Shown here piece by piece: positions 34,581 to 60,895 of a stretch of 64,000 nt of DNA; within the stretch, counting starts at the first letter, position 1, and each line of letters starts with the position of its first letter. This DNA is from Schmidtea nova. Taxonomy: Eukaryota. Made by a program: the position numbers and the translations under genes. The DNA is taken from positions 196,974,001 through 197,038,000 of the forward strand of contig CM097882.1 in the NCBI GenBank assembly GCA_044892505.1. The letters run 5' to 3'. The notes below the pieces were generated by a model. It searched no databases and was not told where the DNA came from. It was given only the letters and a program-made list of their open reading frames with translations.

Positions 34581-35124
34581 TTTTTAATGTTTATTGTTTG
34601 TTAAAGTGAATAATGAATGAAAAAGTATTGTTTATATATCAAAGTTATTACACACACATAACCTTTGACCAATAAAAATCGAGTAAGGGGTAGGAAATTT
34701 ATTCTTATCAGCCAATCAGATTCGAGTAAGAGGCAGTAAAGGTATTATTATCATCAGATAGAGAATTATGACTAATTATATATTACGTTGCAGTATTTTA
34801 AAAAAACTAGAAAAGTTATTTCAACAAATTATAATACACAACAAAGTTATAAAATATTTCAATGAATTGCATGCAATGAATTGTCATATGATTAAATTAT
34901 ATTAGACTAAATATTTCAGTAAATTACGTCTAAATTATATTACATTTCAATAATTACGTCAGTTATAAAAAATATTTTAATTAATTTTGATAAAATACAT
35001 TAGAATTGTCAATAACACACACAAAACCTTTATAATTTTCATTAGTATATGATAGAAATTAAATTATATCTACACATGATTACAATAAATATTCGATAAA
35101 TCTATGCTAAATAGTCGAAAAATC

Positions 35125-37640: not shown

Positions 37641-38847
37641 CTAATGATTTATATGATTTATGCGATTTTTGTTTTGAGCAAATTTTGAGCAGAAATTTAG
37701 TTAGAAGGTATGTCTGATCTTTTATTTTATTTGTATTAGTATTATGATATCTGTCATTATATTTCTATGAACCTAAATTTTCGTTTTAACTATTGTTATG
37801 ATTTTTACAATTTATGATTTACTTGCGCTCCTTCTACTGTGTAATCGGTGGAAGGAGGCGAAATGAATTATTTTTATTATGTTTAATGATTTGAGGGGGC
37901 TCCTTTCCACTGTGTAATCGGTGGAAGGAGGCAGACTTCGCCTGAGTGGAACAACTACTCCGTAAAGTTAGGCCGTCTTCATGGTATTAAGTGTCATGAA
38001 GAGGGTAGGACTTTAATACTGAATTTTAATTAATACTGGCAAGTATAGCCAAATACCTATTATGTTTCATTAACAATTTATAAAAAATATTTTATTCAAC
38101 GCATTTAAAAACATCCATTCGGCATTGTACATAGGACATTTGGAGCGCAGGGTTGCCAACATTGGTTAAAAGAGGATTGAATACTAAATACCATCCTTCA
38201 GAGTTTCTGGAGGCAGGAAAAGGCTAGATTGCAGCCATCTGTTATATATAAATCACCCGAACATAAAGAGGTGGAGATAAAATGAGTTGCTGAAAACATC
38301 CAGGGAAATATTGTGCCCGCATCAACAAATATAGCCATAAAGTGTAATTTCACCTGAGAGAGCTACGTCATCATGGGAATGAAAATCGTTTGGTCTTCTG
38401 GAAATCCGGCTAAGGAAGAGTACGAAAGTTGAAAAGAAAGATAACTTGAGAAACCCCTCACTATTAATAGTCCAATCTGTCTATTACTGCTTAACACCAG
38501 ACTCAGAACTCTTGTGGAGACCCAGATTTTTCATTGATTTTACGGCAAGCATCATTTTTTAAAGATAACCGCTCATTTTTGGNNNNNNNNNNNNNNNNNN
38601 NNNNNNNNNNNNNNNNNNNNNNNNNNNNNNNNNNNNNNNNNNNNNNNNNNNNNNNNNNNNNNNNNNNNNNNNNNNNNNNNNNNNNNNNNNNNNNNNNNNN
38701 NNNNNNNNNNNNNNNNNNNNNNNNCAAAGACCAAATGTGAAGCAGTTCAGAGTATATTGCGTAATTCAATCACTGTGTTAGTTATTGCGTAATATACATA
38801 ACTATTTAAGAGTGATCACTCGGTGTTTTTAGTAAATAAATCTTTAG

Positions 38848-40050
38848 ATGGAACCGATTGTTGTAACTGGCGACCACGCCGAAAATATTCACACAATGAC
38901 GACTCGAGGAGAAGGGAAAAAATCTGCAAGAGACGTACTATCAAAACGTGCTCAAGAACTCTTGGATATGGAAATTAGAAGATACGACGGCAGATGTACC
39001 AAAGAAGCTGAAAAATGGATACATGCAATTGATGATTGGATCGCTAGAAATGACTTAAAGAGGACAGAAGCATTCGATTTTCTCCTTTGCGACGAAGCGG
39101 CTACGCTGTGGAAAAATTTCAAAACAGAAAAAACAACAGATAAAGCAGCTAAAGAATGGTTTTCCGAAACATTTACTATTAAATTGACTATTTTAGACAA
39201 GATTAAAGAACTTGCTGCAATTAGACAAGATGAAAATGAAAGATATGCAACCTTCGAAATCCGGGTATTAAAATTAGTGGATGAAGTTATTAATTCAGGA
39301 ATGAGGGTAGAGGAAATTGCCAATGAAATTATAACTGGACGAGTCAGAGACAGAAGATTAAAAGATGCGCTAACAATGAAACCAACGATGACCACAGAAG
39401 AACGAAATCAACTGGCCAAAATTTAGGAAAAAGTGGAATCAAAAGAAAAGACGGAAGAAATTATGGTAATAAAAAAGAGTAGTTACGCAGAAGCAACAAG
39501 GAGAAGGAATCCAGAAACGTTTACCAGAGAAACAAATGGAAGTAATGGCAATATATTAAGAATCCAAGGAAATTACAGAAGAGAGAATTTACCAGATAAT
39601 TCTTATAGCAGAAATAACGAAATAAATAATACAGTCGAACGGAATATGCAGAGAAGGACACCAACGGTTTCGCTTAAACACATCGCCAAGAGATTATACA
39701 ATCGATCTAGAGGCCTTCCTGATCCAAGAAACGTCGAATTACAGTCAGGTCAATGTTTTTGCTGTGGAGAATATGGGCATAGAAGATATGAATGCCCACT
39801 AAAAGATAAATGTTTGATATGTGGTAAGGGAGGACATAATTTTCGTGATTGTTATTTATTAAGAAAGAAAGAACAGCAGAACTATGAGAACAAGAAAATT
39901 ATATCTTGTGTGCATGATGAAGAAAACGGAAGAAATTACTCCGATGATGCAGAAACCAGAGAATCAATTAGTGATTATGTAATTCATGATGTGGAAACTG
40001 AAAAAAACACGAGGAACTCTATTGCATACATTTCGTCAATGGGGTTGTAA
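38848..40050 (+). pseudogene. Gypsy gag with two CCHC knuckles; in-frame TAG at 39424-39426
   Basis: CFCCGEYGHRRYEC and CLICGKGGHNFRDC; both ORF-track pieces are in the same frame. Confidence 0.85.
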
Positions 40051-40082
40051 AGAAAGAAAATCGGAATGACAGAGCAGAAGGA

Positions 40083-43000
40083 ATGAGGTATGTAACATCA
40101 GATGGAAGAGAATGGAGCAAGATGATGATAAATGATGTTGAGATTGAGATGTTGTGGGATTCTGGAGCTTCGATTACAGTGATGAATGAGGAAACGTGGA
40201 ATAAAATTGGTAGTCCACGGTTAAGCAGTAGTGAAATCAAAATATGTGGAGTTTTTCCAGGAACTCAAAAACCACTGGGATGTACAGAAGCAAATGTTTA
40301 TTGGCACAATAAGATGAGGAGTATCAAAATAATTGTTATTAAAAATATTTTTCCAGGTTTTATTGGTGGGGTAGATACTTTGAAAGCATTTGGAGTGCAG
40401 TTGATGGAAATTAACAATATTGAATCCGAGACAAAAATTAGTAATTATACTGATGAGGAGAGAAGACAAAAAGCAAAAAATGAATTGGGAAAAAATGAAT
40501 TGCCGACAATTAACAAATTATTAGATGAATTCGGGTCAATATTTATGGCAGCTAGATTTGATTTAGGATTCACAAGAATCGTTGAACATGAAATTAATAC
40601 ATCTGGGAATCCAACAATGCAATTTCCAAGACGACAACCGATGCATCTAGAACAGAAAATTGACGATATGATAAAAGAGTTAACAAAAGCTGGAGTTATA
40701 AGACGCTGTAAAAGTCCATGGAGCTCCCCATTAGTCGTAGTGGGGAAGAAAGACGGCTCAATAAGAATGTGCGTAGACTATCGAGAGCTGAATAAGATAA
40801 CAGAAAGAGAATCTTTCCCTATGCCCAACATATCTCAATTACTCGATAACCTATCAGGATCTAAATACTTTTCTTCTTTAGATCTTGGACAAGCATACTA
40901 TCAGGTAGCATTAGCAAAAGAAGCGCAAGAGAAAACGGCTTTTAGTTCCAAAGAAGGTCAATTTTGTTTCAATCGACTTCCGTATGGACTATCAACGGCT
41001 CCAGCAACGTTTCAGCGATTAATGCACACGATGTTAGAGGGTATATTGTTTAATGGAGCAATTGTTTATTTAGACGATATTCTTGTATATGGCAAGGATC
41101 AGTCTGAACATGATGAGCGATTACGAGAAGTTTTTAAAAGAATACAAAAAACAGGACTAAGAATAAATCCGGAGAAGTGCGAAATTTACAAAACAAAATT
41201 AAAATTCCTTGGTTATACCATCAGTGAAGATGGAATACAGACAAATTCAGAGAAGATCAAGTCAATTACAGAAGCGACGAAACCGCAGTGTGCTAAACAA
41301 CTTCAATCATTTCTGGGTTTGACAAATTATTATAGACGATTTGTTAAAGATTATGCTAAAATAGCAGCACCCTTACATGCAGCAGCTTCAGGTTGTGATA
41401 AAACAATCAAATGGTCAGAAAATTGTGAAAACAGTTTTAGTCAGCTTAAAGAAGCCTTAACACAAGCTCCTATTCTTGATTTCCCTCGTATAGATCGGAA
41501 ATTTATTTTGGATACTGATGCCAGTTTTGAGGCTATTGGAGCAGTTTTGAGTCAAATAAAAGAAGACGGTTCAGAAATAGTTATCACATACGGTTCAAGA
41601 AATCTGACGGCCCATGAAAAGGGATACTGCGTAACCAGGAAAGAATTATTAGCGTTACATGAATATGTTTTATATTTTAGACAGTATTTATACGGGAAAG
41701 AATTCGTGGCCCGAACAGATCACAAGGCTTTAGTATTTATGAACACAAACAAAAAAGCAATAAGTCCACAATTTCAGACATGGATGGCTAATCTATCGGA
41801 ATATGACTTCCAATTGAAATACCGGAAAGGTGAAGAACATGCAAACGCAGATGGATTATCAAGGATCGGGGGTAGTTTGTGTGCACAATGTCAGACAGCA
41901 CATGTACAACATAAACAAGAAAGATCAAGGGTAAGATACATCAATTTGATACAAAAAACACATACAATGTTGGAGATTATGGAAGAACAGAAGAAAGATA
42001 AATTGTTCCAGGACGCGATGGAAATTCTTAGGAATCAGATAGATGTTCGAAAGGAATCGTTTCAAAATAGTTTTTTATTCAGATATAAAGATCAGTTAAA
42101 GATATCGGATGATATGCTTGTATTGGAAAAGGACAAAATAGATCTAGTGGTAATCCCAGAAAGCTATCAATCTAAATTAGTGATTAAAATACATGAAGAT
42201 TTATGTCATGTTGGAACTAAGAAACTGTTTCATTATTTGGAAGGGAATTTTTTCTGGCCGAAAATGCAAGAAACCGTTAAATAGATAGTAAAACGATGTG
42301 TCACTTGTGCAAGAAGGAAAATAGACCAAGGAAAGACAAAGGAAATTTTAATTCCACACGAAAGTTCTGAATTTCTAGAACAGATTGTTATGGATGTTGC
42401 TGTCATGGAGAGAACTTCAACAGACAAAAGGTATGTTATCGTTATTATTGATAGGTTTAGTAAATTAGTAAGTCTAACGGCTACAGCAAACCAAGATGAA
42501 AAAACTATTTTGAAGACGCTAATGAACAATTGGATTTACAAATATGGTAAACCTCAAAGTATATTGACGGACAGAGGGCGAAATTTTGAAAGCAAATATT
42601 TGAAGGAAAAATTAGAGCAGCTGGGAATAAAGCAAGAATTCGCAACGCCGTATCAACATCAGTCGAATGGCCTAGTGGAAAGAGCTATCAGAACAATGAG
42701 GGATTTACTTGTGACTACGATGAAAGGTGGCTGTGCTGAAAAACAGTGGCACGAACTGCTGCCTCGAATTGAATTCAGTATTAACGCAACTTATCAAAGT
42801 GCTACAAAATTTTCACCATTTGAGATAGTATATGGACGGAAAATAACATTACATGCTAATTCTAGGCTCAAACATCAAATACGAGATATTTCAGAAGAAG
42901 CACAAACGAATAACAAGCAAGCTGCTCAAAAGATGAGGAAATTCGAGGATGACAAAAGAATTAAACGACATTTTGAAGTGGGGGAGGAGGTACTAGTACG

Positions 43001-43154
43001 ACGAGAACCACATAGAAGAAACAAAAATGATATTCAATATGATGGTCCATATAAAATTCTTAGATTTGTGTCAGATCACCAAGTTGAATTGCAATATCCA
43101 AATACAACGCGACACCGACGAATCGAATGGTTAAAGAGATGGAATCAATTTTAA
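40083..43154 (+). pseudogene. Gypsy pol (PR-RT-RH-IN); -1 frameshift site AAAAAAC at 40002-40008; in-frame TAG at 42282-42284
   Basis: LWDSGAS, YLDDILV, LDTDAS...ELLAL...TDHKAL, IHEDLCH..CVTC, IVMD/TDRGRNF/VER. Confidence 0.92.
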
Positions 43155-46100
43155 GAAGGGGAGAGTAATGATATTGCAATAAAGGCCAAAGACCAAATGT
43201 GAAGCAGTTCAGAGTATATTGCGTAATTCAATCACTGTGTTAGTTATTGCGTAATATACATAACTATTTAAGAGTGATCACTCGGTGTTTTTAGTAAATA
43301 AATCTTTANNNNNNNNNNNNNNNNNNNNNNNNNNNNNNNNNNNNNNNNNNNNNNNNNNNNNNNNNNNNNNNNNNNNNNNNNNNNNNNNNNNNNNNNNNNN
43401 NNNNNNNNNNNNNNNNNNNNNNNNNNNNNNNNNNNNNNNNNNNNNNNNNNNNNNNNNNNNNNNNNNNNNNNNNNNNNNNNNNNNNNNNNNNNNNNNNNNN
43501 NNNNNNNNNNNNNNNNNNNNNNNNNNNNNNNNNNNNNNNNNNNNNNNNNNNNNNNNNNNNNNNNNNNNNNNNNNNNNNNNNNNNNNNNNNNNNNNNNNNN
43601 NNNNNNNNNNNNNNNNNNNNNNNNNNNNNNNNNNNNNNNNNNNNNNNNNNNNNNNNNNNNNNNCGTCTAAATAATACTATAAATTATAAAAATAAAATAG
43701 ATAATTAATAAGACTAAAAAGAAATAAAATACAAATATTTATTGTCATAAATCTTCATCATCATCTTCATCTTCGTCATCTTCTTGAACTTCATCATCAT
43801 CTTCATCATCATCATCTTCGGTAAATGAATCCCCCATAACTGTAAAACTTTCCCTACAATGTCCATAAGCAATACTTTTATTTTTCTCAACCCAAAGTCT
43901 CTTATCATCGAGGTTTGTAAGTGAAATTTTTGAAAACTTATTAGTAAAAATTTGATGATTTTTACTCACAAATCGAGACTGTTAGACTGAAACTATATTA
44001 TTATTTCTATAACAATCAAGATAAGACCGATGCTTCAGTTTAGTATCTTTCAAACAGACGCCTTTAGCATTTAAACATTCCTTATCACCTAAAAGGCTAT
44101 AAAATTTAGGTCTAAGAAAATTCCATTTCTTATATTTATGATACTTATTTTCGTCTTTAAACTTTCCTATAACCGAATCAAGTTTTTTCGAATATAAAGA
44201 ATGACTAGGCTCGTAATTCGATGTATCCAAAAGACAATCTCTAACCATCGCAGGAAACAGAACATCTAACCTACAATTCTTAATCTCTAAGAAGAAAGAA
44301 TCAGTATCGCCTGCAACTATATTAATCTCACAGTTGAATTCATTGCGATATTTTTGCAATTCTTCATACTGGAGTTGATACATCTTAAGTTTCGATAAAT
44401 CTAAAACTGATTGACCTATATAACTCGGTCTGTCTAAACACACAGAGTCTTTATTTAAAAGAACAGAAATCAAGTCATCATCTATCCCATAAGTTTTCCT
44501 GAAAGTTGGTTTCGATGAATAAGTAATCAGTTTCGACGCAGAGTTGCATAGCCTTAAATTTAATCTTTTCTTAAGGTTTTCGACAGTTTTTCCGTAAAGA
44601 CTGTTATTTAACAGCTTATAAAAATCCTTATCTAAAACAAACGATGAAGCTGCCCTAAGTCGTGTATTAGTATCTATATAATCTTTAAATATAGATTTCT
44701 GCTTATATTGAACAGCTCTATGAATCTTTGTTATTTTAACTCCTTAAGAAAGAAATAGTTTTAAAAGTCTCCAACGAAGAACATAATTCTTCTTTGGATA
44801 ATGTGTCAACATTAACTTTTCAACTTTAGATCCTGGAGCACACATTCTTTCTGCCGCTACTGGAAAGTCATTTAATTTGTCGTGAATTTCAACCGGGATT
44901 TCCAAGTCAACTTCAAATGTTACACCGATTGTTAAAACCTCTAAGTCAGCATCCATCAAATTAATTAATTAAATTTATTCTCATCAGTGATCCATTTAAA
45001 TTTACCACAAGGTAACTTTTGGCTTAAGGCCCAACCGTACAAATTATTAATGTCGATGTATAGTAGTTCAGTCGTTTCGGAGGATACTACGTGATGTTTG
45101 TTGACAAATGTCAAACCACCACGGATCCTCCCTTCGAAAAAATTATACATCTCCATATCCTGGAGCAATTCAATAGGTTCTTCCAAGGTAATAAGTGCAG
45201 AAGACCACGACATACCTGGAATACCCAAGAAATTCAATGGTTCTAACCTATTATGAGAAATTGACTTGGCTCTAAACTGTTGAAAGAAGTCAGCAAGAAG
45301 AAAGACGTCAAGTTTTAAGTATATCATCACGTAGTCACAAAGAATTTGACAATTAGTTTCCCTCCAAATAACTAAAGCCTTATCGTATTCAGCCTGTTTA
45401 ACACCCTCCCAGATTGGTGGTAATTCATATGTTTCATTCAAGACTTCTAACGATGTCGCAAAATTATAAGGAAAAATACTCTTACAATCAACAATAGTAC
45501 CAGTGAATTTTGATCGCGTTAAAGGTAAAGAAGTCAATGTTTTAACTGCATCATTTAAACTGGAGTTAATAAACTGACAAGAGTTAATGAATTTAATTGT
45601 TAAAACACCGACTCTTGCAGATAAAGTAAGGAATTTTGCACTGGTTGTAGGAATACAAGATATTTTCAAACTACTAAAGTTAGCCAATCCATATTTAAGA
45701 ATATGATGCATGTCATACCCTTTTAAGTTATGAAAAACAATTGGTAGTTCCTTAAGAATCTGTCTAGTAAGATTACATTTCGAACAAGCAGCACCCAAGA
45801 ATTCACCAGTGTAATGGTCATGATCTCTAACCGGATTAACTAAACGATTTTTACAAAGGTAACAAATAGTAGATGAGGCAAAAGATCTTTTATTATCAAA
45901 TGTCATAAGAAGTGGTTTTTTGTAGTTATTTTTATAAAAATGAAAAACAATTTCTTCACCTATATTGCTAATTTCAGAAAGGAACTTAATTACACAATCT
46001 ATACCTAAGAAACTCTTGTATGTTTTTTCACCAGTAAAGTTCTTAACAAGTAAAAGTCCCGCAGATATAGGTACATGTCTCTGAAAATATTTATCATCAG

Positions 46101-47272
46101 AGGTAAGATCGCCTCAAAATCAGCGTAAACTACAAAAGGCGGAGTAATCGTTTTACCCCAATTACTAAATGTTAAATAAGGGTTTTTAAGTAAAGTATAT
46201 AGAGTTGTGCCTAAATGATTTTTTGAACACAACTCTTGCTGACGAACGAATGAATCTTGATATCTAAACCCATTCAAGCATCGATGACACCATATGCTTT
46301 GAATACTAGTACCAGATATTGATTTATTGTCAAGATTTAAAAGTCTACCAAGATTGGTGACTGCTATATAATGAAAAGAGTCACCATTTTGCAAAAGAAT
46401 CAAATTAATAGGAATTCCGTCTACTACTTTCGACCTATGAATTATATCAATACATGGATGTTTGAAAACTTCAGGCTTAGTGTCTAGAATTCCAGATTCA
46501 TCATATGACAGTACTTTAATCGCATATCCCGGGTTTTTAGCTTCAAACTTTGGGATATTGCAAAGACGCATAGGTAAATCAGAAGGACTAAAGTTAAGAT
46601 CTGAAAGATTATAATTACTGGCCCTATGTCTATTTTTACGAAAAGGTACCTCATCATACTTAATAATTACCAAAACAGAATAGATAAAACACAAGTCATC
46701 AGAATTATGAACATTTACAACACAATGTTTTGACTTTAAAGATTCAGGAGTATCAATACCACCGTAACCTATCAACCTACTAATCTCAGAAAATTTTGTT
46801 AAGATGAAATGAATTTCATTAATTTTATTAATTACCCAATTACTGCCTCTATTATTAATTAATGTAATTTTTTCATTAAGAATATTAATGCCATCGTCTA
46901 AAAAAGTATCTGTGACAGGTTGTGCAGAGTTCGAAATAACTATAGTGTTGGGCCCACCAAATGGTCTAAAAAAGACGAAAATAATTTAATAATTTAAACA
47001 AAAAATACAAATAATAAATACAAAAAACATTGGAAAAACCTAAATTAAAAATCAAAATAAAATAATAAATAATAATAACTAAATTTCCAGCAAAGGAAAA
47101 AAATCAAATTGACACGGGAACGAGCAGCATGGGGGTCTGAAATAAGAAAATTACAAATAAAATCAAATAAGAGTACAATAAATTAGTTAATTACTTGAAA
47201 AATCAGGACCACCCAGTGAGAAACCTGAACCGGAAATTTAAAATGGTTTATATTAAAATAAAATAACAAAGT

Positions 47273-47339
47273 TACTTTGATGGACGGCCTGATCCTGATT
47301 GGTCAATCTGACCAACTGGATCAGTATAAATACCGATCC
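47273..47339 (+). promoter_or_regulatory. CCAAT + IR3 palindrome + TATA promoter cassette of element copy B
   Basis: ATTGG at 47298, GGTCAATCTGACC, TATAAATA at ~47325; identical to 10596-10662. Confidence 0.6.
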
Positions 47340-48410
47340 AAAAATATTAAAAACCGACATAAAAATTTTGATTACCGAACTGATCTATAACAATCGATTC
47401 AGTCACATCAACTTTGTTACGATAAATTTTCGAAATAATTTTTGGGAACGCATCAAACTTGGATCTTAGAGAGTAATTTTTTTTTTATTGTTATTAAAAT
47501 AATTTTTATTACATGTTTCTCATGATTCCCATTTGATTTTATTTTAATATAGTTTATTATGATTAATGAGTTGGTTTATTCTATTATTTTATTTTATAAT
47601 AAATACACTTCCTCAGTAGCTCACGCTGCGAGGGAGTAAGCCGTAAGTGTGGGATTTCACCGTTCCACAAGATGGTGAGCGAAGTTTTTATTGACAGTTT
47701 TATTTTATTTAATTGAGTGCTATCAGAGGTTTACCTTAAAGTAGAGTTGTGCATGGGGCCAGGGTTGTACTTGCAAACAATCAAACAGGAGATCAAACAG
47801 GAGATGTCCAAGAGTAATTAAAATATCATTGATTATATAACTTAACAAATCAGCTAAATCGGTTTCACCTTATGTACATTATGTCGAATCCACACAACTG
47901 CAGCTGATCTAGACAAATAGATGCATCCGGACACACCGAGGAGATTCCGACATTTTAATGAAATTTTTGACTAGGGTATAAATAGTAACATAATCGAATT
48001 TAAATCACAGATTGGATAAATAAAACAGTAACCTGATCGCTGTAAATAGCGCAGGCAATAATATTTGAATTTCTTATAAACGTATCCCGATCGCTGTATA
48101 TAGCGACGGTGTTAAGCGCCCCAAACTGAACTGCTCAATGGCTTGCATCCGACGAGATCCAGTCAATCACGGGTTGCACATTACCCCCGTTCACGGCCTC
48201 CAAGTGAAGCGTTTTCGCTAACAACGTTATTCACACTACTATGAATAAATATGTATCATCAATTAAATGGTGTTGATCTGTCTTTTTGTTTGTTATTAGT
48301 TGAATTTCGATCCATTTATTGATTTAATTATCCAAATCTTTCCACTCGACGGATAGTATTAGCCGTTGGTAGTATAATTTCAGTATCATAAAATAGGTTT
48401 ATTATTTAGT

Positions 48411-49007
48411 ATGACGGAAACCAGCCAACAGCGGGAATTGGATAAGGCGTGGAGAATCCGCCGAGCATTAGAAAAGGAGTTAAATCAAGAAAAAGCATTA
48501 CGGGCTAAGGCAGAAGCTCAGATTCAGTATGTACGAACCAGCTGGTTCGCCCCAGCCCGTATGAAGGAACAGATGAGTCGAACGGAAAGGGCTCAAAAGA
48601 CAGCTGACGATTATCGCACAGAATGGGAAGCAACAAAAATTGAGTTGCGCCGATGTCTCCATTCTGTGACGACTTCTTTCATAGAGTCCGAATTGAGATC
48701 ACAAATCCGACCCATCACCTACCAGAAATGGGTAGGAGAACAGAAGGTGGCCTGCTCGGTCAGTACCGACACCGATGGTCTCGAAGTAACAACAGTACAA
48801 AGTCCGATAGAATCCACCGTTGCACCAAATCCCGTCGGAAAACCGAACAAGAGAAAGCGAATCGGTTCCAAGCGCCGTCGCCAAAGGAAGCTGTTCTCTC
48901 AGCAGCTGCAGGCACAAGTGACCACTATGGCAGAAATGTCGGAAGCCGAGTGGTTATCAGAGATATTCCCTCCGAAGGAATTTTCAAGGAATTTTTGTAG
49001 CAGATAA
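48411..49007 (+). CDS. Orphan 198-aa coiled-coil protein with Arg/Lys-rich C-terminal motif, intact in copy B
   Basis: ATG-to-stop ORF; homolog at 8077-8676 with many substitutions but conserved motifs. Confidence 0.7.
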   Translation: MTETSQQRELDKAWRIRRALEKELNQEKALRAKAEAQIQYVRTSWFAPARMKEQMSRTERAQKTADDYRTEWEATKIELRRCLHSVTTSFIESELRSQIRPITYQKWVGEQKVACSVSTDTDGLEVTTVQSPIESTVAPNPVGKPNKRKRIGSKRRRQRKLFSQQLQAQVTTMAEMSEAEWLSEIFPPKEFSRNFCSR

Positions 49008-50417
49008 AATCATAACATGATGTCAGATCTTGGTGTTGATTAAATATTTGCTTGTTTGTTTTTTTTGTTTGTTATTTCCTATGTATTTCCTTCGGTTACA
49101 CAGTTCATAATAATTAAATTTAAATTACATGTCACACAACGAAAGGAGTAGCGTTAAAAATTTTAAATATTATCGAATTCGTAGTTTCTTTTTGTTTGTT
49201 TTGTTTTTTGATAAATACATAAAATCACAAGTACACCGAATAACAACAATTGCGTAAGTCCTTCTACGGCCGCGTAAACCCGTAAACATAAAGGGGGAGT
49301 AGTCCTAGCAATAGTGCTCACCTGCCCCTCATTGTTTAACCACCCTGCGCATCACCAACTTGGTTATCGGGGGAAATAATCAAGGGCGCTCGAGTGTAAC
49401 TTACGACTATTTGTACATGATCATGAAGGGGAGATCTCTAGCAATCATTAGAATTTTTACTAACCCTTCCATGAACCCAGCAATAGTTTTAAAAGCACCA
49501 TCTTTTTCAAACTCTACTTCGATGCAAAATTGTATTTTAACAGTTCCCATTGTTTCAATTACGTTATTTAATTTATTAATTAAATTAACCAGTACAATCA
49601 TTGTTTTTAAATTCAAGTTAGTGACAATCATTTTCACTATAGCATGTGATTTATTTAAATCAAATTTAACAACAGGTCAAAGAGAACCACCAACCTGTAC
49701 TTCAGGAACTAAAGAGTCTATATCTGATAATTTATCGTCATCGTCAGAAATTTCAATAAAATCAGGAAGAGAACCAACAATTTGAATATTGGAATTATCA
49801 ATTGAACCAGGAACAAAAGAGTTCAACCTCAAAATCAGAAAGATTATTTATATCAGGAATGATATCATCATCAGGAATGATATCATCATCGGAAATTATA
49901 ACTATATCTGAAGGAACAACTGAAGTTACACCTGAAAGAACAACTGGAGGAATATCATCAGAAAGAACTGACTTATTAATTTTGATTGGGTTTGGACTAA
50001 AGTCATTACATTTTCTTTTAAGTGGTAATTTTAAAATAGATTTCTTTGATGTTTTAAATTGATCTAAATGCTCGCAATGAGTCTTGTAAAAATCTATATA
50101 TAAAGATGATGAAGTAGATTTGCAAATAGGGCAAATGTAGTAGTTTTTAAAGTTATGAGGGTATGCATAATATCTTTCCATTATTTCATGACATTTTAAA
50201 TCATGAATTGTAGAGTTGCAATAATTTTGATATAAATTACCTATAATTTTAAAAAAATTATAAAAAAATTATGATAAAATAACAATGATGTATATATTAA
50301 GTGTGTATACACACATTCATTTCAAAATATCGTAATATATATTTATTGATATGATTGGTTAAATAAATTCCAAAAGTTCTATATAAACGAATTATAAAAT
50401 TAATATAATCATTAAAA

Positions 50418-50645
50418 ATGTATCAACTGAAAAGTAAGATTAATTAATATTAAATGATTATTTTTAAATTTCTTTTTCTAGAATCGAAAAGAATGACAAA
50501 ACAAGAAATAATGAAGATTATTCTTGAAGAAAATCCTAATTCAACATCTAATTTGGTATTGAATCCACCAGTTCAATTCTTGCAATACTCGATAGAGTAT
50601 TTGAAATACCCGATCAGAACACAGAAGGTAAAATACCGTTTTTAG
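50418..50645 (+). CDS. Small Polinton-2 gene with a predicted 48-nt intron (50434-50481), truncated by the Penelope insertion
   Basis: ATG TAT CAA CTG AAA A|gtaaga...ttctag|AA TCG gives MYQLKKSKRMTKQEIMK... in frame. Confidence 0.4.
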
Positions 50646-51049
50646 ATACCATAGTAAGTTTCACAAAAGGCCAAGATACACTAAATGCAAACACCGAGCT
50701 ATATTCTAAAAGTTTACATAGCGGTCATATCCTCCCATGGAAAAGCCACGTTCCACTTCAACGCAAAATCGCATTACTAATAGGAGAAAGAAAAAGAGCC
50801 ATAAGAAACTGTTCAGACGCAAACAAAATATAAGAAACATTAGAAAACTTCAAAATACGATTCCTCCAAAATGGATACCTTGAAGACTTTGTAAAGAAAC
50901 ACTTCCTTAACGAACCATACCACAATAAACGCAACAATAGAAAACGCCAGAAACACAATAACAATAACAAACACACAACATATCTAAGATTACCTTTCCT
51001 AAATGACACTACAGCCAACAAAATCACCAACATTTTTAATCAAACAGAT

Positions 51050-51466
51050 TTGCCTATCCACATCCGTCCAACGTTCATAACCTCCGCACCGTTAAAATCA
51101 CAACTCCGAAAGCCACCAATTTCCAACATCTCCAAACATAAATGTCTTTGCCGTTCCACAACCCGATGCTTTTGCTTTTCCAAAAATATAGTATATAAAC
51201 TTTCTTGCCAAAAATGTGACGCTACTTACATAGGAGAAACACATAGAACTTTTCGCACCCGACTTAATGAACACACTAAAATCAATACCAGTAATTATTA
51301 CGAACACTGGGAGAAAGTACATAAAACAACTCCATCTATAGAAGAAACAAAATGCCAGATTCTACAAGAGGGATTCAAAAATTCATTACAAAGATTAGCT
51401 TCCGAGACTTTTTTCATAAAAAAATACAAACCGTCCATCAACATTCAATTCACACAAAAAAATTAA
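51050..51466 (+). CDS. GIY-YIG endonuclease domain of the Penelope-like element
   Basis: IVY...CxxC...YIGET..RLNEH motif. Confidence 0.85.
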   Translation: MPIHIRPTFITSAPLKSQLRKPPISNISKHKCLCRSTTRCFCFSKNIVYKLSCQKCDATYIGETHRTFRTRLNEHTKINTSNYYEHWEKVHKTTPSIEETKCQILQEGFKNSLQRLASETFFIKKYKPSINIQFTQKN

Positions 51467-52199: not shown

Positions 52200-52577
52200 T
52201 TACTTCATATATTTTAGCCATGCTAAACAATGTTGTCCACAGGTTTTGTCATAGGATTTTGATACCGAATTCTGTTATATTCTATTGGCTTTAACAATGA
52301 CGATAATTTTTTCAACAATATCGGCGGATAATAGAATCCCATTGGATCAAACACGTATATTTTATCGGGTTTATTATAAATTGCAAGCCAATGTTCACCT
52401 TTGAGATTTGATGATTGAGTATTGACAATCAAAGCCTTATTCACATGTATATACGGTATTTTATCTAGAGGGAAAACTCCTAGAAATTCCGATCCAATCA
52501 ATTTTCTAGCAATTTGATCTATCTGAATTGAACTAAAATCAATAAAATTTAATTTTTAAAAATAAATCTTACTTCAT
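52200..52577 (-). pseudogene. Adenain-like cysteine protease, 40-nt intron (52533-52572), frameshift just before the catalytic QxxxTCG motif
   Basis: Spliced MNSIQIDQ..FLGVFPLDK, GEHWLAIY, FDPMG, YQNPMT; CGQHC lies in a shifted frame. Confidence 0.85.
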
Positions 52578-52608: not shown

Positions 52609-53829
52609 TTAAACGAGTATTGTTCGATTAGATGTAATTTGTAATTCCTTTTCAAAAACTCCATATACAATTACAGAAACCGATTCAGTCAATGGTGTGC
52701 CAAATTTAATATCAAGTCTTAGATTACCTTGTTGAGGTAATTGACTTTGATTTAGATCAAAATCTGGAGCCAAAACAAAAGTGAAAAAAAGGATATTTGG
52801 TTTTCCAATCTGATAAAGAAATACCGCAATTCATACTCTTATTCAGGTAACTAAGGTTACGGATAATAGATTGCATATAACTAGTATTGCAATTATCATT
52901 TTCAAAATCTTGAGAATATTTTTCACGATAATCACTTCCTTTCGATAAAGTTAAAGATTTGACATTAAAATGATCGTAAATAGAATAAGTTTCAGTAAAT
53001 GAACCACTATGTCTCTTATTTCCTTGAAATGCTACAAGAATAAAGTTTGGTAATCGTCTATCTCCAAAGATTTGTTCCTTATAAAACGAAGAAGAACCCA
53101 TTGGCAATAAAAATTCTACAACTTCCTTCTTTTTTATTGGATAAATTGCAATTCTTGTACCAAGTCCAATTTGATGCCCTGCCAAAACTGATGGTTCAAC
53201 TCGAACTCTTCTAACCATTAATTTTCCCTCTAATAATTCAATTATAGGTTCAATTTCTGTACATGTTAAACTATCGGATGGATTTGATCTCGTCAATTTA
53301 ATTTGAACACTAACACCTGGTAAAAAATATTTGGGTTGTTCCATGAAATCGAAATGTAATGGAGAACAAATTGAAAATGGTTTTGATTTTGCAATCCATG
53401 CTTTTCTAGTAAGATCATGGTCATTGTATCCCATTGGAGTTAAAGATGTGTGTTTTGTATCACTATTGTAGTTGAGAATAGTTTCAATCATGGCTTTGTG
53501 TGTAAATGTATCATTTCCCCCTTCTACTTTAGTAGAATTGAAAATTAATTCGGCTTCTTTAAAAAGAGTTTAAAAAAAGAAATTGTTGGGAGTAACATCT
53601 GCATCCAATCCTAAATTTTCACCTGATTTGTTTACAACCTTAACCTGAAGAGATAGTAAAGTATCGTTCAAATCTAAATATTCAGTTTGAGATCCGTTGA
53701 TGTAAAATTGAATAGATGATGTCCCAGCATCTGTAATTGAATTTGTAATGTAAATATCTTCAAATGCACCATGTTCAATTACTGCTTGTGGAGACGGTCT
53801 ATCAAATATTCAGATTTTGCACTAATCAT
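52609..53829 (-). pseudogene. Double-jelly-roll major capsid protein (Polinton PY/hexon-like), with frameshifts and one stop
   Basis: SKSE..FD..QAVIE, YLDLNDTLLSLQVKV, PLHFDFMEQPKYFLPGV, RLPNFILVAF, QGNLRLDIKF are typical of Polinton MCPs. Confidence 0.85.
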
Positions 53830-54233
53830 TTTTCGAATATTGTTCCATATTCTTTCATTCTTTTGTTTATATGTTTCTTTATATTTCTTTTACGTTTAAG
53901 AATTCCGCCATTTTGTTTATTTTCAGTTTTATTTTCGTTAACCACATCAGTCACTTTATTAATTACTTGTGGTAAATGATGAATCACATCAGGTAATGAA
54001 TCTTTAATTTCAGAAATGGCATTGGATTTTAGTGCAGGTAAAATCTTTGAATTATTATTTAACACATCATTGGCAGTTTCATACCAAAAATTTCCAATAC
54101 GTCTAAGAATTGGTAATGCAAATCTACCTATTGTTTTCAACCAACCAGTTCCATATTGCTTACCTACAAAATACGGTAATTCTCCACCTGATTGACGGTT
54201 GCTATAGAAACGGATAATATCTGTATTATTCAT
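53826..54233 (-). CDS. Polinton virion core/membrane-active protein with QxGG/QxGxG motifs and an amphipathic helix
   Basis: RQSGGELPYFVGKQYGTGWLKTIGRFALPILRRIG; basic C-terminus; stop overlaps the MCP ATG. Confidence 0.65.
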   Translation of the reverse strand: MNNTDIIRFYSNRQSGGELPYFVGKQYGTGWLKTIGRFALPILRRIGNFWYETANDVLNNNSKILPALKSNAISEIKDSLPDVIHHLPQVINKVTDVVNENKTENKQNGGILKRKRNIKKHINKRMKEYGTIFEK

Positions 54234-55236
54234 TTATTTTACGGAAATGTAATGTCAAGTAAGTCTTGTCTTCTTTTGCAAATTTAACTATTTTTCCACT
54301 GTCATCACGAATATTGATTTCAATATTGTTTATATATGTGGAACTGACCGGTAAATACATTGAATTTTTCGTAACAATTTGAACCAAATCACCCTTTTTA
54401 TGTTTTTCAATCCAAACACATTTCAATAGGGGAACTGACATGTCACCAACAAGAATTGGTTGAATAATATTCGTATAGATGAACATTTGTTGATGAAGTT
54501 TTAAAACTTGTGGATAATATACACCATCAATTATTTTGTCAAAGAATTCTTGTTCAATTAATCCTAACTAATTTACTAAATTCATACTAAATTTTATACT
54601 AGTTATATCATCTTCAAGAATTAATTTTCCTTCTTTAATATCAACCACTTTAAATGGATGTCGATAAAAAGTTTCAATTTGATCCGATAATTCAGTAAGA
54701 TTACTTATTATTAAATCATCTTTGAAATTATCTGTGTATTCAACAAGATAAGTATAAGTTATAGTAAATCGTATAGTATCATCAAGTTTTTTATTTTCAT
54801 TTGCAGGAATTTCAATTTTGTGTAATTCATCATTAAATGACACAGCTTTTTCTTGAAACCCTAATTTTTTAGCTTCTTCAACACTTTCAAATATTATTTG
54901 AAATGGAAAATATTTACAATTTACATTTAAAATATTGCCATCAATATACATCATATAATAATTAGAATCGTGACTTATTTCATATTTATTCTTTTGCTGG
55001 TTAAAATTGAAATATTCATAACTAGAATGTAATTCACTTCTAGTAAATTTTATACTTGAATTATTATAAAACGGAAATTCATTGTATACAAAAGTAAAAT
55101 CCATAAGAGCAACTTCCCAACTACTATCCAAATAAATTGGGTTTTGATATTCAACATTGAATTTTCCAGCTTTATTATTGGGATGTGTCAATGGGCAAGA
55201 ATTACTAGGTAAATTAACATAAAAATCTTTTTTAAT
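54226..55236 (-). pseudogene. Minor capsid protein (penton) paralog 1; in-frame stop at 54568-54570, start codon reads ATT
   Basis: FYVNLPSNSC..PNN..F.VE..NPIYL..WEVAL N-terminus and MFIYTNIIQP.LVGD..VPLL..YLTLHFR C-terminus. Confidence 0.8.
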
Positions 55237-56806
55237 CTTTTATTTTACGAAAATGTAGAGTCAAATGAGTCTTTGTATCTTTTGAAAATTTAATTAATTT
55301 TCCACTGTCATCACGAACAGCGCTGTGCTGTAACTTTTGGGGGCCCTGTGCAGAAACTAAAAAAATATTTTTTTTAAATTTGAATTAATATTTTATTGAT
55401 TTAAAAAAAAATAATACAAAGCATTTATAAAGTAATTTTTCTAGCTTTTTTGCTGGCAAATTCATTATTTATATCATTGTAATCAATTGCTCTGGCTGTT
55501 GCATTTCCAATCGGCAGTATTGCAAATCCAGGAAGTCTTTCCTGTGACATTGTAGACCGTAGATAATTTTCAATTAATTTTATTTTTGAAAACGATCGTT
55601 CACAATGAGCAAAGGTAAAATGGGTACTGTTAAAATTATTCGATATGTGATACATACATTTGGATCTAATTCTTCCAAACTTCTTTCTAAAATGTATTCC
55701 AAATTCTCCATAATAGTATAATTATCTTCTAAAATATATTTTTTCTAATGGAGAAGTTTTTCCAATGTATTTTATATTTGGGGGCCCTTCAAAAATAGGA
55801 AGCCCAGTGCCATTACACTTGTTGCACTTGCGATAGTACGGCGCTGATCACGAATATTGATTTCAATGTTGTTTATAGTTGATGTTGAAATCGGCAAATA
55901 CATTGGATTCTTTATTTCAATTTGTACAACTTCACCTTGGTCATATTTCTTGATCCAAATTGATTTTAGGAGGAGAACTTGTACATCTCCAACAGTTACT
56001 GGTTCGATAATGTTGATGTAAATGAACATTTGCTGATGAATTTGTAAAATTTTGGGAACTTTTACACCGATTATTTCTGTATCAGTATATGTTTGTTTCT
56101 GTAGACCCAGAGATTTGGTTAAATTTGAATCAAAAGTAATTTTTGAAATATTATCACGAAGAATAATTTTAACCAATTCATTATTGTCAAGTTTCATTTC
56201 TTTAAATGAAGATGGATTAATTTTCATTAAATATCCTTGCAATTCCGGTAATGACGTTATGAATAATTCTTCTTGAAAATAATAATCATTAACAGTTTTA
56301 ATGTCATAATTTAATAAAATTCCAAATTGTTCAACACTATTATCATTCGTGAATTTTGGTGATTTTAAGCGATAATGATCATTTTCACTTGTAATTGTGG
56401 TATTTTTCAATCCAAAACTTTTTGCATGTTCAAGATCTGGAAATGTAATTTTATATGGAACATGTGGACAAACAATCACTAAATAATTATATTTTTCAAT
56501 AAATACATCAGTGTCTGAACTAGGTTGAGAAACTATAACTTGAAATGTTTTATTTTGATTATTAATTCTTAAATAACTAATTTCTTGAATTTCTCTTTTA
56601 GTTTCAATTTGAATAAAAGAATTACTATAATACGGGAACAAATTATACACAAAAGTAAAATCAATCAAAGCAACTTCCCAATCGTCATTACTATTTAAAT
56701 AAATCGGATTTTGAAATTCTACATTAAAATTACTAGCTTCATTATTAGGATAAATAAGAGGACATGCATTGCTAGGCAAAATCATATAAAACTGGTTTTC
56801 TTTCAT
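55234..56806 (-). pseudogene. Minor capsid protein (penton) paralog 2, interrupted near its C-terminus by a hAT element
   Basis: FYMILPSNAC..WEVAL and MFIYINIIEPVTVGDVQV..IEINIRD; the sequence resumes DSGKL beyond the insertion. Confidence 0.82.
55318..55846 (-). mobile_element. Non-autonomous hAT element (529 bp) retaining the transposase C-terminal dimerisation domain
   Basis: Perfect 8-bp TSD ATCACGAA; TIR cagcgctgtgct / agtacggcgctg; CERSFSKIKLIENYLRSTMSQERL. Confidence 0.9.
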
Positions 56807-56819
56807 AATATTTATTTAA

Positions 56820-57900
56820 TCAATTGTTTTTCAGATATCCAACTTGGAGTTTCATAGCCATGCCATTTAACGTAATATTGTTTATATTTCCCATCAGTTT
56901 TGGTTTTTAAAATCTTTTAAATTCAAAATACTGTGGGAGCTGGAATAACTTGAAGTTATTGTTCGTAGAATTTACCCTCGATTACATTGTTTTCATGATC
57001 GGAAATAGTATACATGATAGGATTTTGATTAGTATCAACATTTGAGATTTGATATACTTCATCACTCTAATTACAATCAAAATTTTTGATGAAGGGAGAA
57101 GCACTGATTTTACTCATTCTCACATAATCACCTACTTTATATTTGGGTTTTTTATTAATTGATTTTAATCTATCTTCTATTCACCCATAAAAATTATTAT
57201 TTGAATATACATCGATAGGTTTCATTCTATTTAATCCCGAATGCGGTGAACGATTGTAACTGGAAATAATTTTCGGTAAAACATTTATCCATGTTTTGTT
57301 ACCTTGATACACAAAATACTTTTTCAAACGATCTCTTAAAGTACGATTAAATCTTTCAACATGAGCAACTTTGAATTGAGACAATACAGAATAATGATTG
57401 ATTTCTTTGATCACTTCTTTTACTTTGCTGTTATAAAACTCTTTTCCTAAATTAAAATTAATTAATTAAAAAATTTAATTTAATTTCTTACCCAAATTAG
57501 TTTGTAAATTACGTGGCTTCCCATCTTTAAATAAAGTTTAAATAACATCAGCCATTTCATTAGCAGATTTAGTTTTTGTTGGAATAGCTCGTGCATAACG
57601 GCTAAAAACATCAATACAAGTCAAACTATATTTGTAACCCTTGTTAATTTTAGAATAAGGGATCATTTCCATCAAATCCATTTGCCATAAATCATTACCC
57701 CCAAAAGTTTTATATTTCCGTGTAGGAAATCTTTTCAGCATTGGTTTATTTAAACTATATGCCAATTGATCAGATAACCATTTCTGAGTTTCATTCTTTG
57801 ATCTTTTTATTCTTTTTGCCAATTTTTTGACTGAACCAAAACCATTGGGATCTTTTGGGTTTGTCCATATCGTTTTTATATTCTTCATGATTTTCTTCAT
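56820..57900 (-). pseudogene. Polinton retroviral-type (rve) integrase with C-terminal chromodomain-like segment; 45-nt intron 57447-57491; several stops
   Basis: LWQMDL, CIDVFSRY, spliced LQTNLG|KEFYN, VERFNRTLR, YYVKWHGY..SWI. Confidence 0.88.
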
Positions 57901-57962
57901 TAATACAACAATTTGTTAAAATATTTAAATCTATATTATGTTTATTCGGTTGAGAAATTTTA

Positions 57963-58291
57963 TTACTTATTTCTTAAAGAAGAAATTGCGCTTATTGCTG
58001 ATAATACTATTGGAATTAATGTACCGAGAAATCCACCCTTTTGTTTATATATTATTTTTTGCATAAGATTTCTATTTTTGGTATTCACTAACGATAAAAG
58101 CGAATTTTATGTTTTTGCAGTTCAATTTTCTTTGATCTACTAATATTTACATTACCATGAACAATATTAAAAATGATTTCAAGTAAATCATCAATAACAA
58201 AGGGTGGGAAAGCTTGTAAAATCATCATTCGCTTATTAGTTGGAGCTTTAACCAAAGCATTAAAATACGGTAAACTACGTTCAAATTTCAT
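57963..58291 (-). pseudogene. Polinton core protein with adenovirus pX/mu-like C-terminus (one frameshift)
   Basis: Shifted frame gives KQKGGFLGTLIPIVLSAISAISSL, resembling adenoviral pX GG-(I/F)LPxLIPxIAAAI. Confidence 0.6.
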
Positions 58292-58312
58292 GATTAAGAT
58301 TTTTGTATATAT

Positions 58313-58513
58313 TTATTTCGCTTTACTTGTTTCTTTACTTGTTTCTTTTACTTGTTTCTTTCTTTTATCAACCTTTTTGACAACTTTTTTAACTAATTTA
58401 GGTTTTTGATCAACTTTTTAAATTAGTTTTTGATCAAATTTTTTAATTAGTTTTTGATCAGCTTTTTGAACAGCTTCTTTATTTAACTTGACAATTACTT
58501 TTTTAAAGGACAT
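58313..58513 (-). pseudogene. Lys-rich repetitive basic protein (putative DNA-condensing), one internal stop
   Basis: MSFKKVIVKLNKEAVQKADQKLIKKFDQKLI*KVDQKPKLVKKVVKKVDKRKKQVKETSKETSKAK. Confidence 0.45.
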
Positions 58514-58534: not shown

Positions 58535-59155
58535 TCAATTTTGTTTATAAACCGTGACTCCTTTTTCGTTAAATATATCCGTTCGGATACGTAAATCATC
58601 AGGACATTGTTGAGTAAAATCAAAGAATAAATATCCATGAGGAACTTTAGTAGAATCTTGAAATGAATTAATTAAGAATTTCCTATCATTAGGGCAAGCT
58701 TGTCTTGCTAGAAAATCAATAATTGTAGCATCTCTTGGGTGTTTGAATATAACCAAGTATTGAACATTTAAATTACGGGTTCTGTGACCGCCTTGATAAA
58801 ATAAATTTTGAGTAATGAAAATTACAGTAACTCCTAAATGTCTACTAATTTTTGTGAATACATTATTAAAATCTTTTTCTTTATTTGCTTCTTGATACAA
58901 ATCATCGATAATTATAACATCGCCTTGACGTAATCTAGATGACCAGTTTTTATCAAACCCTTTTATAATTGTCATTTTTAATTTTCAGAATTGATCTTGA
59001 GTCAGTCCATGTTCTTCATCAGCTCCTCTATGCCAGTAAATTTTATTGAATTTAGATTTAAACATTTTTGATTGCAACAATTTACATACAAATAAAGTTT
59101 TTCCACTACCACTCGGTCCCACTATTTGATAAACTTTATCATTTCTTAATTCCAT
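58535..59155 (-). pseudogene. A32/FtsK-like packaging ATPase; stop and frameshift at ~58980-58997
   Basis: Walker A VGPSGSGKT (upstream piece), Walker B IIIDD, SRH...ITQNLF, PHGYLFFD. Confidence 0.88.
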
Positions 59156-59211
59156 TTTTATTTAATTAATTAGTTATTTTAATATAGTTTATATTTATTC
59201 AATTTATACAA

Positions 59212-59691
59212 ATGATAAGTAATATTAATTATAAGGGCAAGTGTTTAGTTCCAAACATGATATTTCCTGTTGGAAAACCACAGCAAGTTATAGATAGTAC
59301 CGGGAAGTACCCTATTTTATTTTTCAGATCGGGAAAATGTCGTGTAATGGGTTGTAAGCAACCGTTAAAACCAGATGATTTGAAATATAAAATTTCGGAT
59401 TTAAAAATTCAATCGATCACTATAACATTGGATATGGGTAAAACCATAAATTTATACGACTTGCAAAATAAAACAGAGGGCTGGTACGAACCTGAAATAT
59501 TCCCAGCTTTGAGATTAATAAATTATAACCCAATTTGTATTAATATTTTTTCAAGTAGAAAAGTTGTAATATTAGGAATTAAAACATTGGATTATTTTAA
59601 TCAAGTAAATGAAATTAAAAATTATATTAATTCATTAATCTATAATGAATTAAATGATGAAGAATTTCTCGATTTATTATTAAATATTTAA
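59212..59691 (+). CDS. Divergent TATA-binding protein (TBP)-fold protein, intact ORF inside Polinton-2
   Basis: Two TBP-repeat ends: ILFFRSGKCRVMGCK and KIQSITITLD..INLYDL..WYEPEIFPAL..CINIFSSRKVVILGIK (compare TBP YEPELFPGL..LIFVSGKVVLTGAK). Confidence 0.8.
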   Translation: MISNINYKGKCLVPNMIFPVGKPQQVIDSTGKYPILFFRSGKCRVMGCKQPLKPDDLKYKISDLKIQSITITLDMGKTINLYDLQNKTEGWYEPEIFPALRLINYNPICINIFSSRKVVILGIKTLDYFNQVNEIKNYINSLIYNELNDEEFLDLLLNI

Positions 59692-59736: not shown

Positions 59737-60126
59737 ATGTCTAAAAGTAAGTATTATTTTTTAATTATCTATATTATTATTATTTTTTATTTAGCTTTTT
59801 TATTTGAAGTGATCCTGAAGAAAATTCAAGAATTATATCCAAAAATAAAAAATTCTTTGGATTACTGTGCACCCGAGTTATTTATTCATAAAATATACAA
59901 ACTTACTGGGATCAATATCGAACAATTGCTTGAGCTTCATTATGATATGGTTCTCGGATCAAATGCTAAATGCGTTGAAAATTGTATAGTTTGTGAAGAT
60001 TCGATGAGAGTATCCTGTGTAAACGGATGTGCATGCTGTCACGATTTTAAAAGAGATCATTCGGTGCATATCTTAATGACCGAAATGCGTAAAGCATATT
60101 ATAACGACATTTATAATTTAGAATGA
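59737..60126 (+). CDS. Polinton-2 Cys/His-rich hypothetical protein with a predicted 48-nt intron (59747-59794)
   Basis: ATG TCT AAA A|gtaagt...atttag|CT gives MSKTFLFEVILKK; CVENCIVC..SCVNGCACCHD..H cluster. Confidence 0.55.
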   Translation: MSKSKYYFLIIYIIIIFYLAFLFEVILKKIQELYPKIKNSLDYCAPELFIHKIYKLTGINIEQLLELHYDMVLGSNAKCVENCIVCEDSMRVSCVNGCACCHDFKRDHSVHILMTEMRKAYYNDIYNLE

Positions 60127-60649
60127 AGTTTTATGATTTACTTGCTCTTTATTTTTATTTTCAAAGTTTTNNNNNNNNNNNNNNNNNNNNNNNNNNNNNN
60201 NNNNNNNNNNNNNNNNNNNNNNNNNNNNNNNNNNNNNNNNNNNNNNNNNNNNNNNNNNNNNNNNNNNNNNNNNNNNNNNNNNNNNNNNNNNNNNNNNNNN
60301 NNNNNNNNNNNNNNNNNNNNNNNNNNNNNNNNNNNNNNNNNNNNNNNNNNNNNNNNNNNNNNNNNNNNNNNNNNNNNNNNNNNNNNNNNNNNATAAAAGT
60401 TTTTAAAATTAACTTCCTTTAAAAAATNNNNNNNNNNNNNNNNNNNNNNNNNNNNNNNNNNNNNNNNNNNNNNNNNNNNNNNNNNNNNNNNNNNNNNNNN
60501 NNNNNNNNNNNNNNNNNNNNNNNNNNNNNNNNNNNNNNNNNNNNNNNNNNNNNNNNNNNNNNNNNNNNNNNNNNNNNNNNNNNNNNNNNNNNNNNNNNNN
60601 NNNNNNNNNNNNNNNNNNNNNNNNNNNNNNNNNNNNNNNNNNNNNNNNA

Positions 60650-60895
60650 AGACTTCATTTTAACAAAATAAAATAAATAGACTTCATTTAAACAAAATAA
60701 TAAAAAACCACTTCATTTAAACAAAATGGAAAATTAAAAAATTCACTTCATTTAAACAAAATAAAAAATTAAAATTAATTCCTTCATTTAAACAAAAATT
60801 TTATTAAAAATTAAAAACAAGAACAGGGGGGGGGTAAAAAAATGTTTAGGGAGGGGGTCTGTTCCTGTTCTTGGGCGCTCCCCCTACTCTACTCT
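60650..60895. repeat. Polinton-2 right terminal region: cttcatttaaacaaaa repeats, G-tracts, terminal ctactctactct
   Basis: Direct reading; AG/AGT-type termini are typical of Polintons. Confidence 0.6.

Follow-up and report, generated by a model that had tools for sequence, protein, structure and literature searches.

A compact TBP-fold protein encoded by a Polinton lineage of Schmidtea nova, a probable late-promoter factor

Introduction

Why does a Polinton carry a gene for a protein with the TATA-binding protein (TBP) fold, and what could such a protein do for the element? The question is raised by a 64,000-nucleotide stretch of Schmidtea nova contig CM097882.1 (hereafter the window), in which a short open reading frame (ORF) with both TBP repeats lies within the right end of a Polinton. 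A preliminary description of this DNA had read the product as an element-encoded basal transcription factor or a TBP decoy, perhaps under ongoing selection or domestication, and had regarded TBP as lying outside the usual Polinton gene set.

The only link between TBP and Polintons that we found in print is the label 'TBP' on a MELD-virus map, in the legend to Fig. 5 of Starrett 2021 (PMC8502044), which recurs in the preprint legends. In the portion of that article available to us, the text held nothing on TBP distribution, structure or promoters (the word 'promoter' gave 0 matches), and the supplement text, possibly incomplete, had no match to TBP. Term searches for TBP/TATA gave 0 matches in the accessible parts of PMC11161782, 10.1101/2023.08.22.554363, PMC11131425, 10.64898/2026.06.19.733378 and 10.64898/2026.10.13.758929, and TATAAAC had 0 matches among the papers listed. 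In the article text covered by these searches, no published description was found of the protein family or of the sequence box reported below. The present work adds an analysis of selection, a map of key residues, the comparison with TBP-less Polintons of the same host and a second motif, GTAAGAA.

Results

The gene, which we call mini-TBP (59212..59691, plus strand), runs from ATG to TAA and encodes 159 aa, of which residues 1-144 form the saddle. The ORF matched the Pfam TBP family (PF00352) in two stretches with an E-value of 8.5e-13, above the curated cut-off. An AF2 model, computed with 121 relatives, reached a pLDDT of 94.4 and a pTM of 0.83. All 44 Foldseek matches of this model in the PDB at E <= 0.001 were TBP, the ESM Atlas returned TBP clusters only, and structure alignment with VIA superposed residues 1-144 on residues 164-337 of human TBP (Z 12.5, rmsd 2.7, 144 residues), the best unrelated fold scoring Z 6.9. 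The two TBP repeats and the TBP fold that had been proposed from the letters were confirmed by these results, and so was the shortened first repeat. All ten strands are present in the model, and both N-lobe helices, H1 and H2, are absent, including the basic H2 of eukaryotic TBP; the linker between the Gly of repeat 1 and the Gln of repeat 2 measures 16-22 residues in 118/121 relatives, compared to 32 in host TBP. According to the part of PMC7221094 at hand, the basic patch of helix H2 serves TFIIA, TAF1, Brf1, Mot1/BTAF1 and NC2. A profile comparison of compact with full-length Polinton TBPs aligned the C-lobe alone and left the N-lobe unaligned.

At the level of sequence, the acidic pair through which the C-lobe contacts TFIIB is kept: E93 is found in 118/121 relatives (Asp in the other three) and E95 in 121/121. 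Inspection of the intercalating Phe positions, which the preliminary description had called for, gave a mixed outcome. Three of the four (yeast F99, F116, F190, F207) are kept, as F38 (121/121 relatives), F97 (120/121) and F113 (121/121), but the position of F99 carries no Phe, being K22 by repeat symmetry or Q24 in another alignment, with a conserved F18 upstream. The DNA face is further changed, with N6, R44, M46, S68 and T70 in place of what we take to be V71, V122, T124, N159 and V161, the N-lobe residues being mapped by sequence alignment and repeat symmetry only. The numbering draws in part on a table in the accessible portion of PMC12529657. R101, C109 and N111 are invariant among the relatives and correspond to yeast I194, V203 and L205, the three positions behind the altered TATA specificity of TBPm3 (PMC1636458, in the part available).

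The mini-TBP gene sits 1.2 kb inside the right terminus of the element, head-to-head with an A32-type packaging ATPase gene (58535..59155, minus strand, starting at 59155 and carrying one premature stop), from whose ATG the TBP ATG is separated by a 56-nt spacer (59156..59211). Downstream of TBP lies a 129-aa ORF without a family match (59737..60126, plus strand), followed by the visible part of the right terminal repeat (60649..60893), which ends in CTACTCTACT. We place the right end of the element at ~60893, where terminus matches stop and where other copies have the same end motif; in other copies the same end sequence is found on the TBP side and on the PolB side, as terminal inverted repeats. 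The window shows the right end only, the left terminus not being visible. An open ORF inside the right terminus, divergent from the structural genes, had been described correctly.

To the left of TBP the element continues on the minus strand and contains later insertions. After the ATPase come a conserved small gene with a basic N-terminus (57969..58456; 181 aa in sister families, broken here), an rve integrase (56815..57900; six stops outside its 45-nt GT-AG intron at 57447..57491), penton-like gene A (55772..56806), labelled from size and position without a family match, its broken paralogue B (54229..55248), a conserved and open 135-aa gene (53826..54233), a broken putative major capsid gene (52612..53829), labelled from its size and a relative's weak Capsid_N match, an adenain-type protease remnant (52295..52486) and a broken protein-primed PolB (43775..50181), split by a 2.5-kb insertion at 46946-49483. 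The penton-like gene is tandemly duplicated in the family of the window (54229-56806), with 72-74% nucleotide identity. The element has the gene set of Polintons and adintoviruses (pPolB, rve integrase, A32 ATPase, protease and capsid genes, the capsid labels resting on weak or indirect matches), and shares PolB, integrase, ATPase, adenain, capsid and terminal repeats with the adintoviruses, Polintons and MELD viruses of PMC8502044, as far as that source was accessible. The claim that TBP is intact while its neighbours are broken holds for the ATPase, integrase, capsid and PolB genes but not in general, since the 135-aa, 344-aa and 129-aa ORFs are open as well.

A GT-AG insert of 42-47 nt was present at the integrase intron site in 39/39 own-family copies spanning it, the range over the own families being 36-47 nt, and this intron points to nuclear Pol II transcription. 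A short GT-AG intron occurs at the same site in all TBP-carrying families of this genome that were examined (window; L225, L227, L229, L231, L235), and is absent from the metagenomic locus L071. In L227, L229 and L231 a small ORF that starts with Met-Gly and ends with Cys, possibly a myristoylated peptide, directly follows an ATAAAC box upstream of the integrase.

Elsewhere in the window, reading of the ORFs suggests two LTR retrotransposons with near-identical terminal repeats (20654-25918 and 38725-43308), a broken reverse-transcriptase-like remnant (~50500-51450) and an EED/ESC-like host exon (1536-2156). A second, very young element with PolB only occupies 30500-36730 (40/40 matches ~100% identical) and contains an inverted repeat (36235-36728) and a 144-nt tandem array (35052-36250). 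It often occurs as inverted PolB pairs ~10 kb apart, and in one such pair examined no match to integrase, capsid or TBP was found; the element resembles a palindromic Polinton derivative with replication functions only.

The mini-TBP gene is not confined to the window. The 1.25-Gb genome contains at least 150 matches, and the 150 that were scored are 92-100% identical to it. TBP and ATPase were both present in 60/60 loci of this genome selected by either gene; being biased to the gene that selected them, these loci serve here to show linkage alone. In four more families of the same genome that bear capsid genes, five copies carry a ~50%-identical TBP in the same head-to-head place. Databases yielded 283 relatives, and relatives occur at 82 metagenomic loci, the long ones carrying PolB, integrase and A32 ATPase. 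Besides a canonical TBP, the host itself has a second one and two divergent TBP paralogues that are intron-poor (L154-L160). In a quick tree the compact TBPs formed one clade (SH-aLRT 99), nested in a larger Polinton group that includes an intermediate form, the full-length Polinton TBPs formed a separate clade (support 99), and Polinton TBPs split from cellular and other viral TBPs (support 92). The tree fits, without proving it, a single capture followed by stepwise trimming. A processed host TBP paralogue is ruled out by the separation of the compact clade from host TBPs and by the adjacent ATPase at all 60 loci. Mini-TBP, as the preliminary description had assumed, belongs to the element and is no host paralogue; it is a fixed component of a widespread lineage of Polintons. 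The earlier view that TBP lies outside the usual Polinton set has to be given up, TBP being standard in a large Polinton lineage and already labelled on the MELD-virus map of PMC8502044. Viral and prokaryotic collections yielded no usable Polinton control, and the single TBP locus that came from them belongs to a large DNA virus.

We then asked how the gene fares once inserted. Among 38 regions selected by terminus similarity (the window and one further copy excluded), 17 carry TBP, which is open in 12/17 copies, compared to 10/14 for the ATPase, a tally that counts one distant-family ATPase as broken. An apparently 'split' ORF129 in these copies was an alignment artefact and was excluded from the counts. 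In 76 copies, singleton variants of TBP were near neutral (pN/pS 0.74, with 7 nonsense changes), whereas variants common to at least four copies gave a pN/pS of 0.13 (shared versus singleton, Fisher p 1.8e-4); the corresponding values for the ATPase were 0.63 and 0.05 (Fisher p 1.6e-5). Since singletons are near neutral and shared variants purified, TBP is purified during element replication and, once inserted, decays. Private to the window copy are 3 non-synonymous changes and 1 synonymous change in TBP, to which is added a rare change at the near-invariant position 116. Because its element genes carry ~19 breaks per 10.4 kb (hand count), a 477-nt frame would be open by chance with a probability near 0.4. 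The window copy is a decaying insertion, and the suggestion of ongoing selection or domestication found no support in these figures.

Upstream motifs were surveyed in 61 metagenomic loci with a compact or intermediate TBP, on the sense strand and within 80 nt of each gene. The top hexamer was ATAAAC, present in 52/63 windows versus 4.5 expected. It preceded the ATPase in 19/19 cases (shuffled 1.5, antisense 0), the small gene in 12/15, the penton-like gene in 9/11, the capsid gene in 8/9, the protease in 3/3, the integrase in 6/11 and four accessory families in 7/10, 7/8, 5/5 and 5/5. When ten box-bearing families, picked after the per-family table was known, were pooled, ATAAAC occurred before 81/96 genes and its antisense form TGTTTAT before 0/96, as did GTAAACA (0/96). 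The hexamer was rare before TBP genes (1/42) and PolB (1/6), mostly missing before families 2 (3/17), 7 (0/6) and 14 (1/7) and the 135-aa gene (1/6), and occurred before 2/6, 1/5 and 0/1 genes of three further families. TBP genes themselves are often preceded by CCAAT and a canonical TATA.

The consensus of the box is (T/C)ATAAAC(A/G), or YATAAACR, and the base at -1 is C in 37% of boxes and A in 4%. In comparison to ~35 for control words, 87/170 ATGs fell in a peak 26-32 nt past the box, the distance expected for a box near -30 with a very short leader. Some boxes lie only 0-13 nt from an ATG, and many overlap the TAA stop or a Tyr-Lys-Gln run that ends the upstream gene. In the window the boxes lie on the minus strand, as ATAAAC 31 nt upstream of the ATPase ATG (59187..59192) and upstream of the integrase ATG (57940..57945), and as YATAAACR upstream of the basic small gene (58542..58549), at 58042..58049, upstream of penton-like gene A (56879..56886) and 35 nt upstream of the major capsid gene (53864..53871). 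The structural block holds six perfect 8-mers, 6/6 on the coding strand, but in the window as a whole the count of the 8-mer equals expectation (21 versus 21.1 expected). In the own family the ATPase box is kept in 69/70 copies, in non-coding DNA without an upstream gene on that strand, and the five copies of the four further TBP-carrying families have 35 boxes on the coding strand and 0 on the opposite one in 29.75 kb.

The same host harbours a second Polinton group, with a double-jelly-roll capsid, A32 and integrase, in which no TBP-profile match was found inside 14 copies, three of them with both terminal repeats and PolB; two strong TBP matches nearby fell in flanking elements of the TBP family. 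In this TBP-less group the box preceded only 2/34 and 1/77 genes (one copy being common to both tallies), and the structural block contained the 8-mer once in 14.55 kb, against 35 in 29.75 kb, a comparison of one lineage with another that differ in many genes. TBP-less copies (L254-L282) have TATAAAATG or ATAAATAAAATG right at the capsid and ATPase start codons. TAAATG is a poxvirus-type late promoter. The start-codon motif of the TBP-less group resembles poxvirus late promoters, and these elements may depend on a helper virus.

In Polintons with a full-length TBP there was no excess of ATAAAC; here GTAAGAA occurred 18 times versus 3.5 expected, four times at 28-34 nt before an ORF, in one data series from five contigs. 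These TBPs (L098, L100, L101, L104, L111) have both helices with a basic H2, and their elements carry PC4-like genes; they have Asn at V122/T124, as in KSHV ORF24. Among their relatives are Mercenaria proteins that bear the name TBP-like 1 and 'hypothetical' proteins of MAGs, and 'TBP-like' annotations in invertebrate genomes, such as two Mercenaria proteins, may be Polinton genes.

TBP and TFIIB are a textbook protein pair. No TFIIB-like match was found among the element ORFs scanned by profile, a scan that covered part of the small ORFs. The host genome has only 6 matches to PF00382 (TFIIB-type), at 4 loci; its TFIIB gene is interrupted by an intron at the interface, and another of these loci is Brf1-like.

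Discussion

Our preferred reading, which we hold to be probable, is that mini-TBP is the element's own late-promoter factor, predicted to bind YATAAACR and bring in TFIIB and RNA polymerase II of the host. Behind it stand the TBP fold, the lineage-wide presence of the gene, purifying selection between active sublineages, the strand and spacing of the box, its absence from the TBP-less group and the spliceosomal-type introns. Mini-TBP would be made early by the host machinery from a host-type promoter and would then bind the boxes before the packaging, capsid and integrase genes, where recruitment of TFIIB and polymerase could switch on these putatively late genes. Loss of helix H2 may allow it to escape the N-lobe regulators TFIIA, TAF1, Brf1, Mot1/BTAF1 and NC2. 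The proposal that the protein directs transcription of the element is, from the motif evidence of strand, spacing and contrast with TBP-less elements, likely to be right, and of the pair 'factor or decoy' the transcription factor is the better supported part.

Compared to cellular TBP, TBPL1 (TRF2) and TBPL2, mini-TBP has the two-lobe saddle and equivalents of F116/F190/F207, P191 and E186/E188, but is ~30 residues shorter, lacks H1/H2 and the Phe at F99, has a polar DNA face, is intronless and element-borne, and belongs to a separate clade of the quick tree. The vTBPs of beta- and gammaherpesviruses (KSHV ORF24, BcRF1, UL87), which in the accessible part of PMC12529657 read TATT late promoters, are likewise viral TBP mimics with a polar DNA face and kept Phe that work with host Pol II, and have a minimal non-canonical box before late or structural genes and a host-type promoter before early genes, the timing being a prediction in our case. 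However, ORF24, at 752 aa, includes a CTD and a Pol II-binding domain of its own and has five partner proteins, and a section title of the same paper predicts it to be incompatible with TFIIB, whereas mini-TBP (159 aa) is a bare saddle of 145 aa, without a Pol II-binding N-domain or partner activators, has kept the TFIIB pair and goes with YATAAACR instead of TATTWAA. By analogy, the system works like the herpesvirus vTBP/TATT system without being a member of it, and is likely to use host TFIIB. Giant-virus TBPs resemble mini-TBP as viral TBPs without the N-lobe regulatory signature; in what was available of PMC7221094 they have lost the TFIIB-contacting pair and often come with a TFIIB of their own, in contrast to the near-invariant pair of mini-TBP (118/121 and 121/121) and the scanned element ORFs, which gave no TFIIB.

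Several observations fit the late-promoter factor poorly. Families 2, 7 and 14 and the 135-aa gene are conserved yet mostly without a box within 80 nt, with a gap of 26-32 nt the 5′ leader is only a few bases long and some boxes are closer still to an ATG, DNA binding could be weak or different given the missing Phe at F99 and the heavily altered N-lobe, the contrast with TBP-less elements is a single pair of lineages, and the 8-mer is not enriched window-wide. Alternatively, a host factor (TBP or a paralogue of it, or a Forkhead protein) or some other protein of the element might read the box, mini-TBP having another job. TATAAAC is one base off a TATA box, the host has extra TBP paralogues, the control is one lineage contrast, and ATAAACA fits the Forkhead consensus, RYAAAYA. 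A Forkhead site, however, would hardly have fixed spacing, nor would one expect neither GTAAACA nor TGTTTAT in 96 windows, and this alternative sits badly with the absence of the box from TBP-less elements in the same host and with the 37% of boxes that have C at -1; TBPm3, too, disfavours a C in its downstream half (PMC1636458, part available). We regard it as unlikely. The decoy, the weaker part of the earlier alternative, would have mini-TBP sequester TFIIB, occupy host TATA boxes or repress element promoters, in keeping with the kept Glu pair, the lost N-lobe surface and the missing F99 equivalent; a pure decoy leaves unexplained why a remodelled DNA face is invariant and why the box precedes late-type genes and not TBP or PolB, and we think it improbable.

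Two further explanations deserve far less weight. One takes the box for a poly(A) or termination signal or for a coding constraint, linked to TBP by a coincidence of lineage; this is suggested by the many boxes that share bases with a TAA stop or with a Tyr-Lys-Gln run, but the ATPase box is non-coding with no same-strand upstream gene in 69/70 copies, and A at -1, which would give AATAAA, is found in only 4%; we give this very little credence. Least credible of all is domestication of the window copy, or its selection by the host, as a TBP paralogue: its frame is open and several neighbours are broken, but chance accounts readily for an open frame, TBP (12/17) and ATPase (10/14) stay open in similar proportion, the private changes are mostly non-synonymous with a rare one at position 116, and the compact clade stands apart from host TBPs.

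Taken more broadly, and with confidence only a little above even, the late-promoter factor would be one case of a one-gene orthogonal switch run by a broad animal Polinton clade: a captured TBP, trimmed stepwise to the smallest two-lobe saddle, which would co-evolve with its own box (YATAAACR for compact, GTAAGAA for full-length TBPs), use host TFIIB and Pol II and escape host TBP regulators. Given a factor dedicated to a defined box, a single small protein and a 30-bp promoter suffice to test how Polinton capsid genes are expressed and whether there is a viral cycle. If the reading is true, Polintons would have arrived independently at the vTBP strategy of herpesviruses, and mini-TBP would be a natural minimal altered-specificity TBP, showing which surfaces are needed for Pol II initiation, and it could provide an orthogonal TBP-promoter pair. 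For the elements themselves it would mean a virus-type early/late programme, with the TBP-less Polintons of the same host using a different signal.
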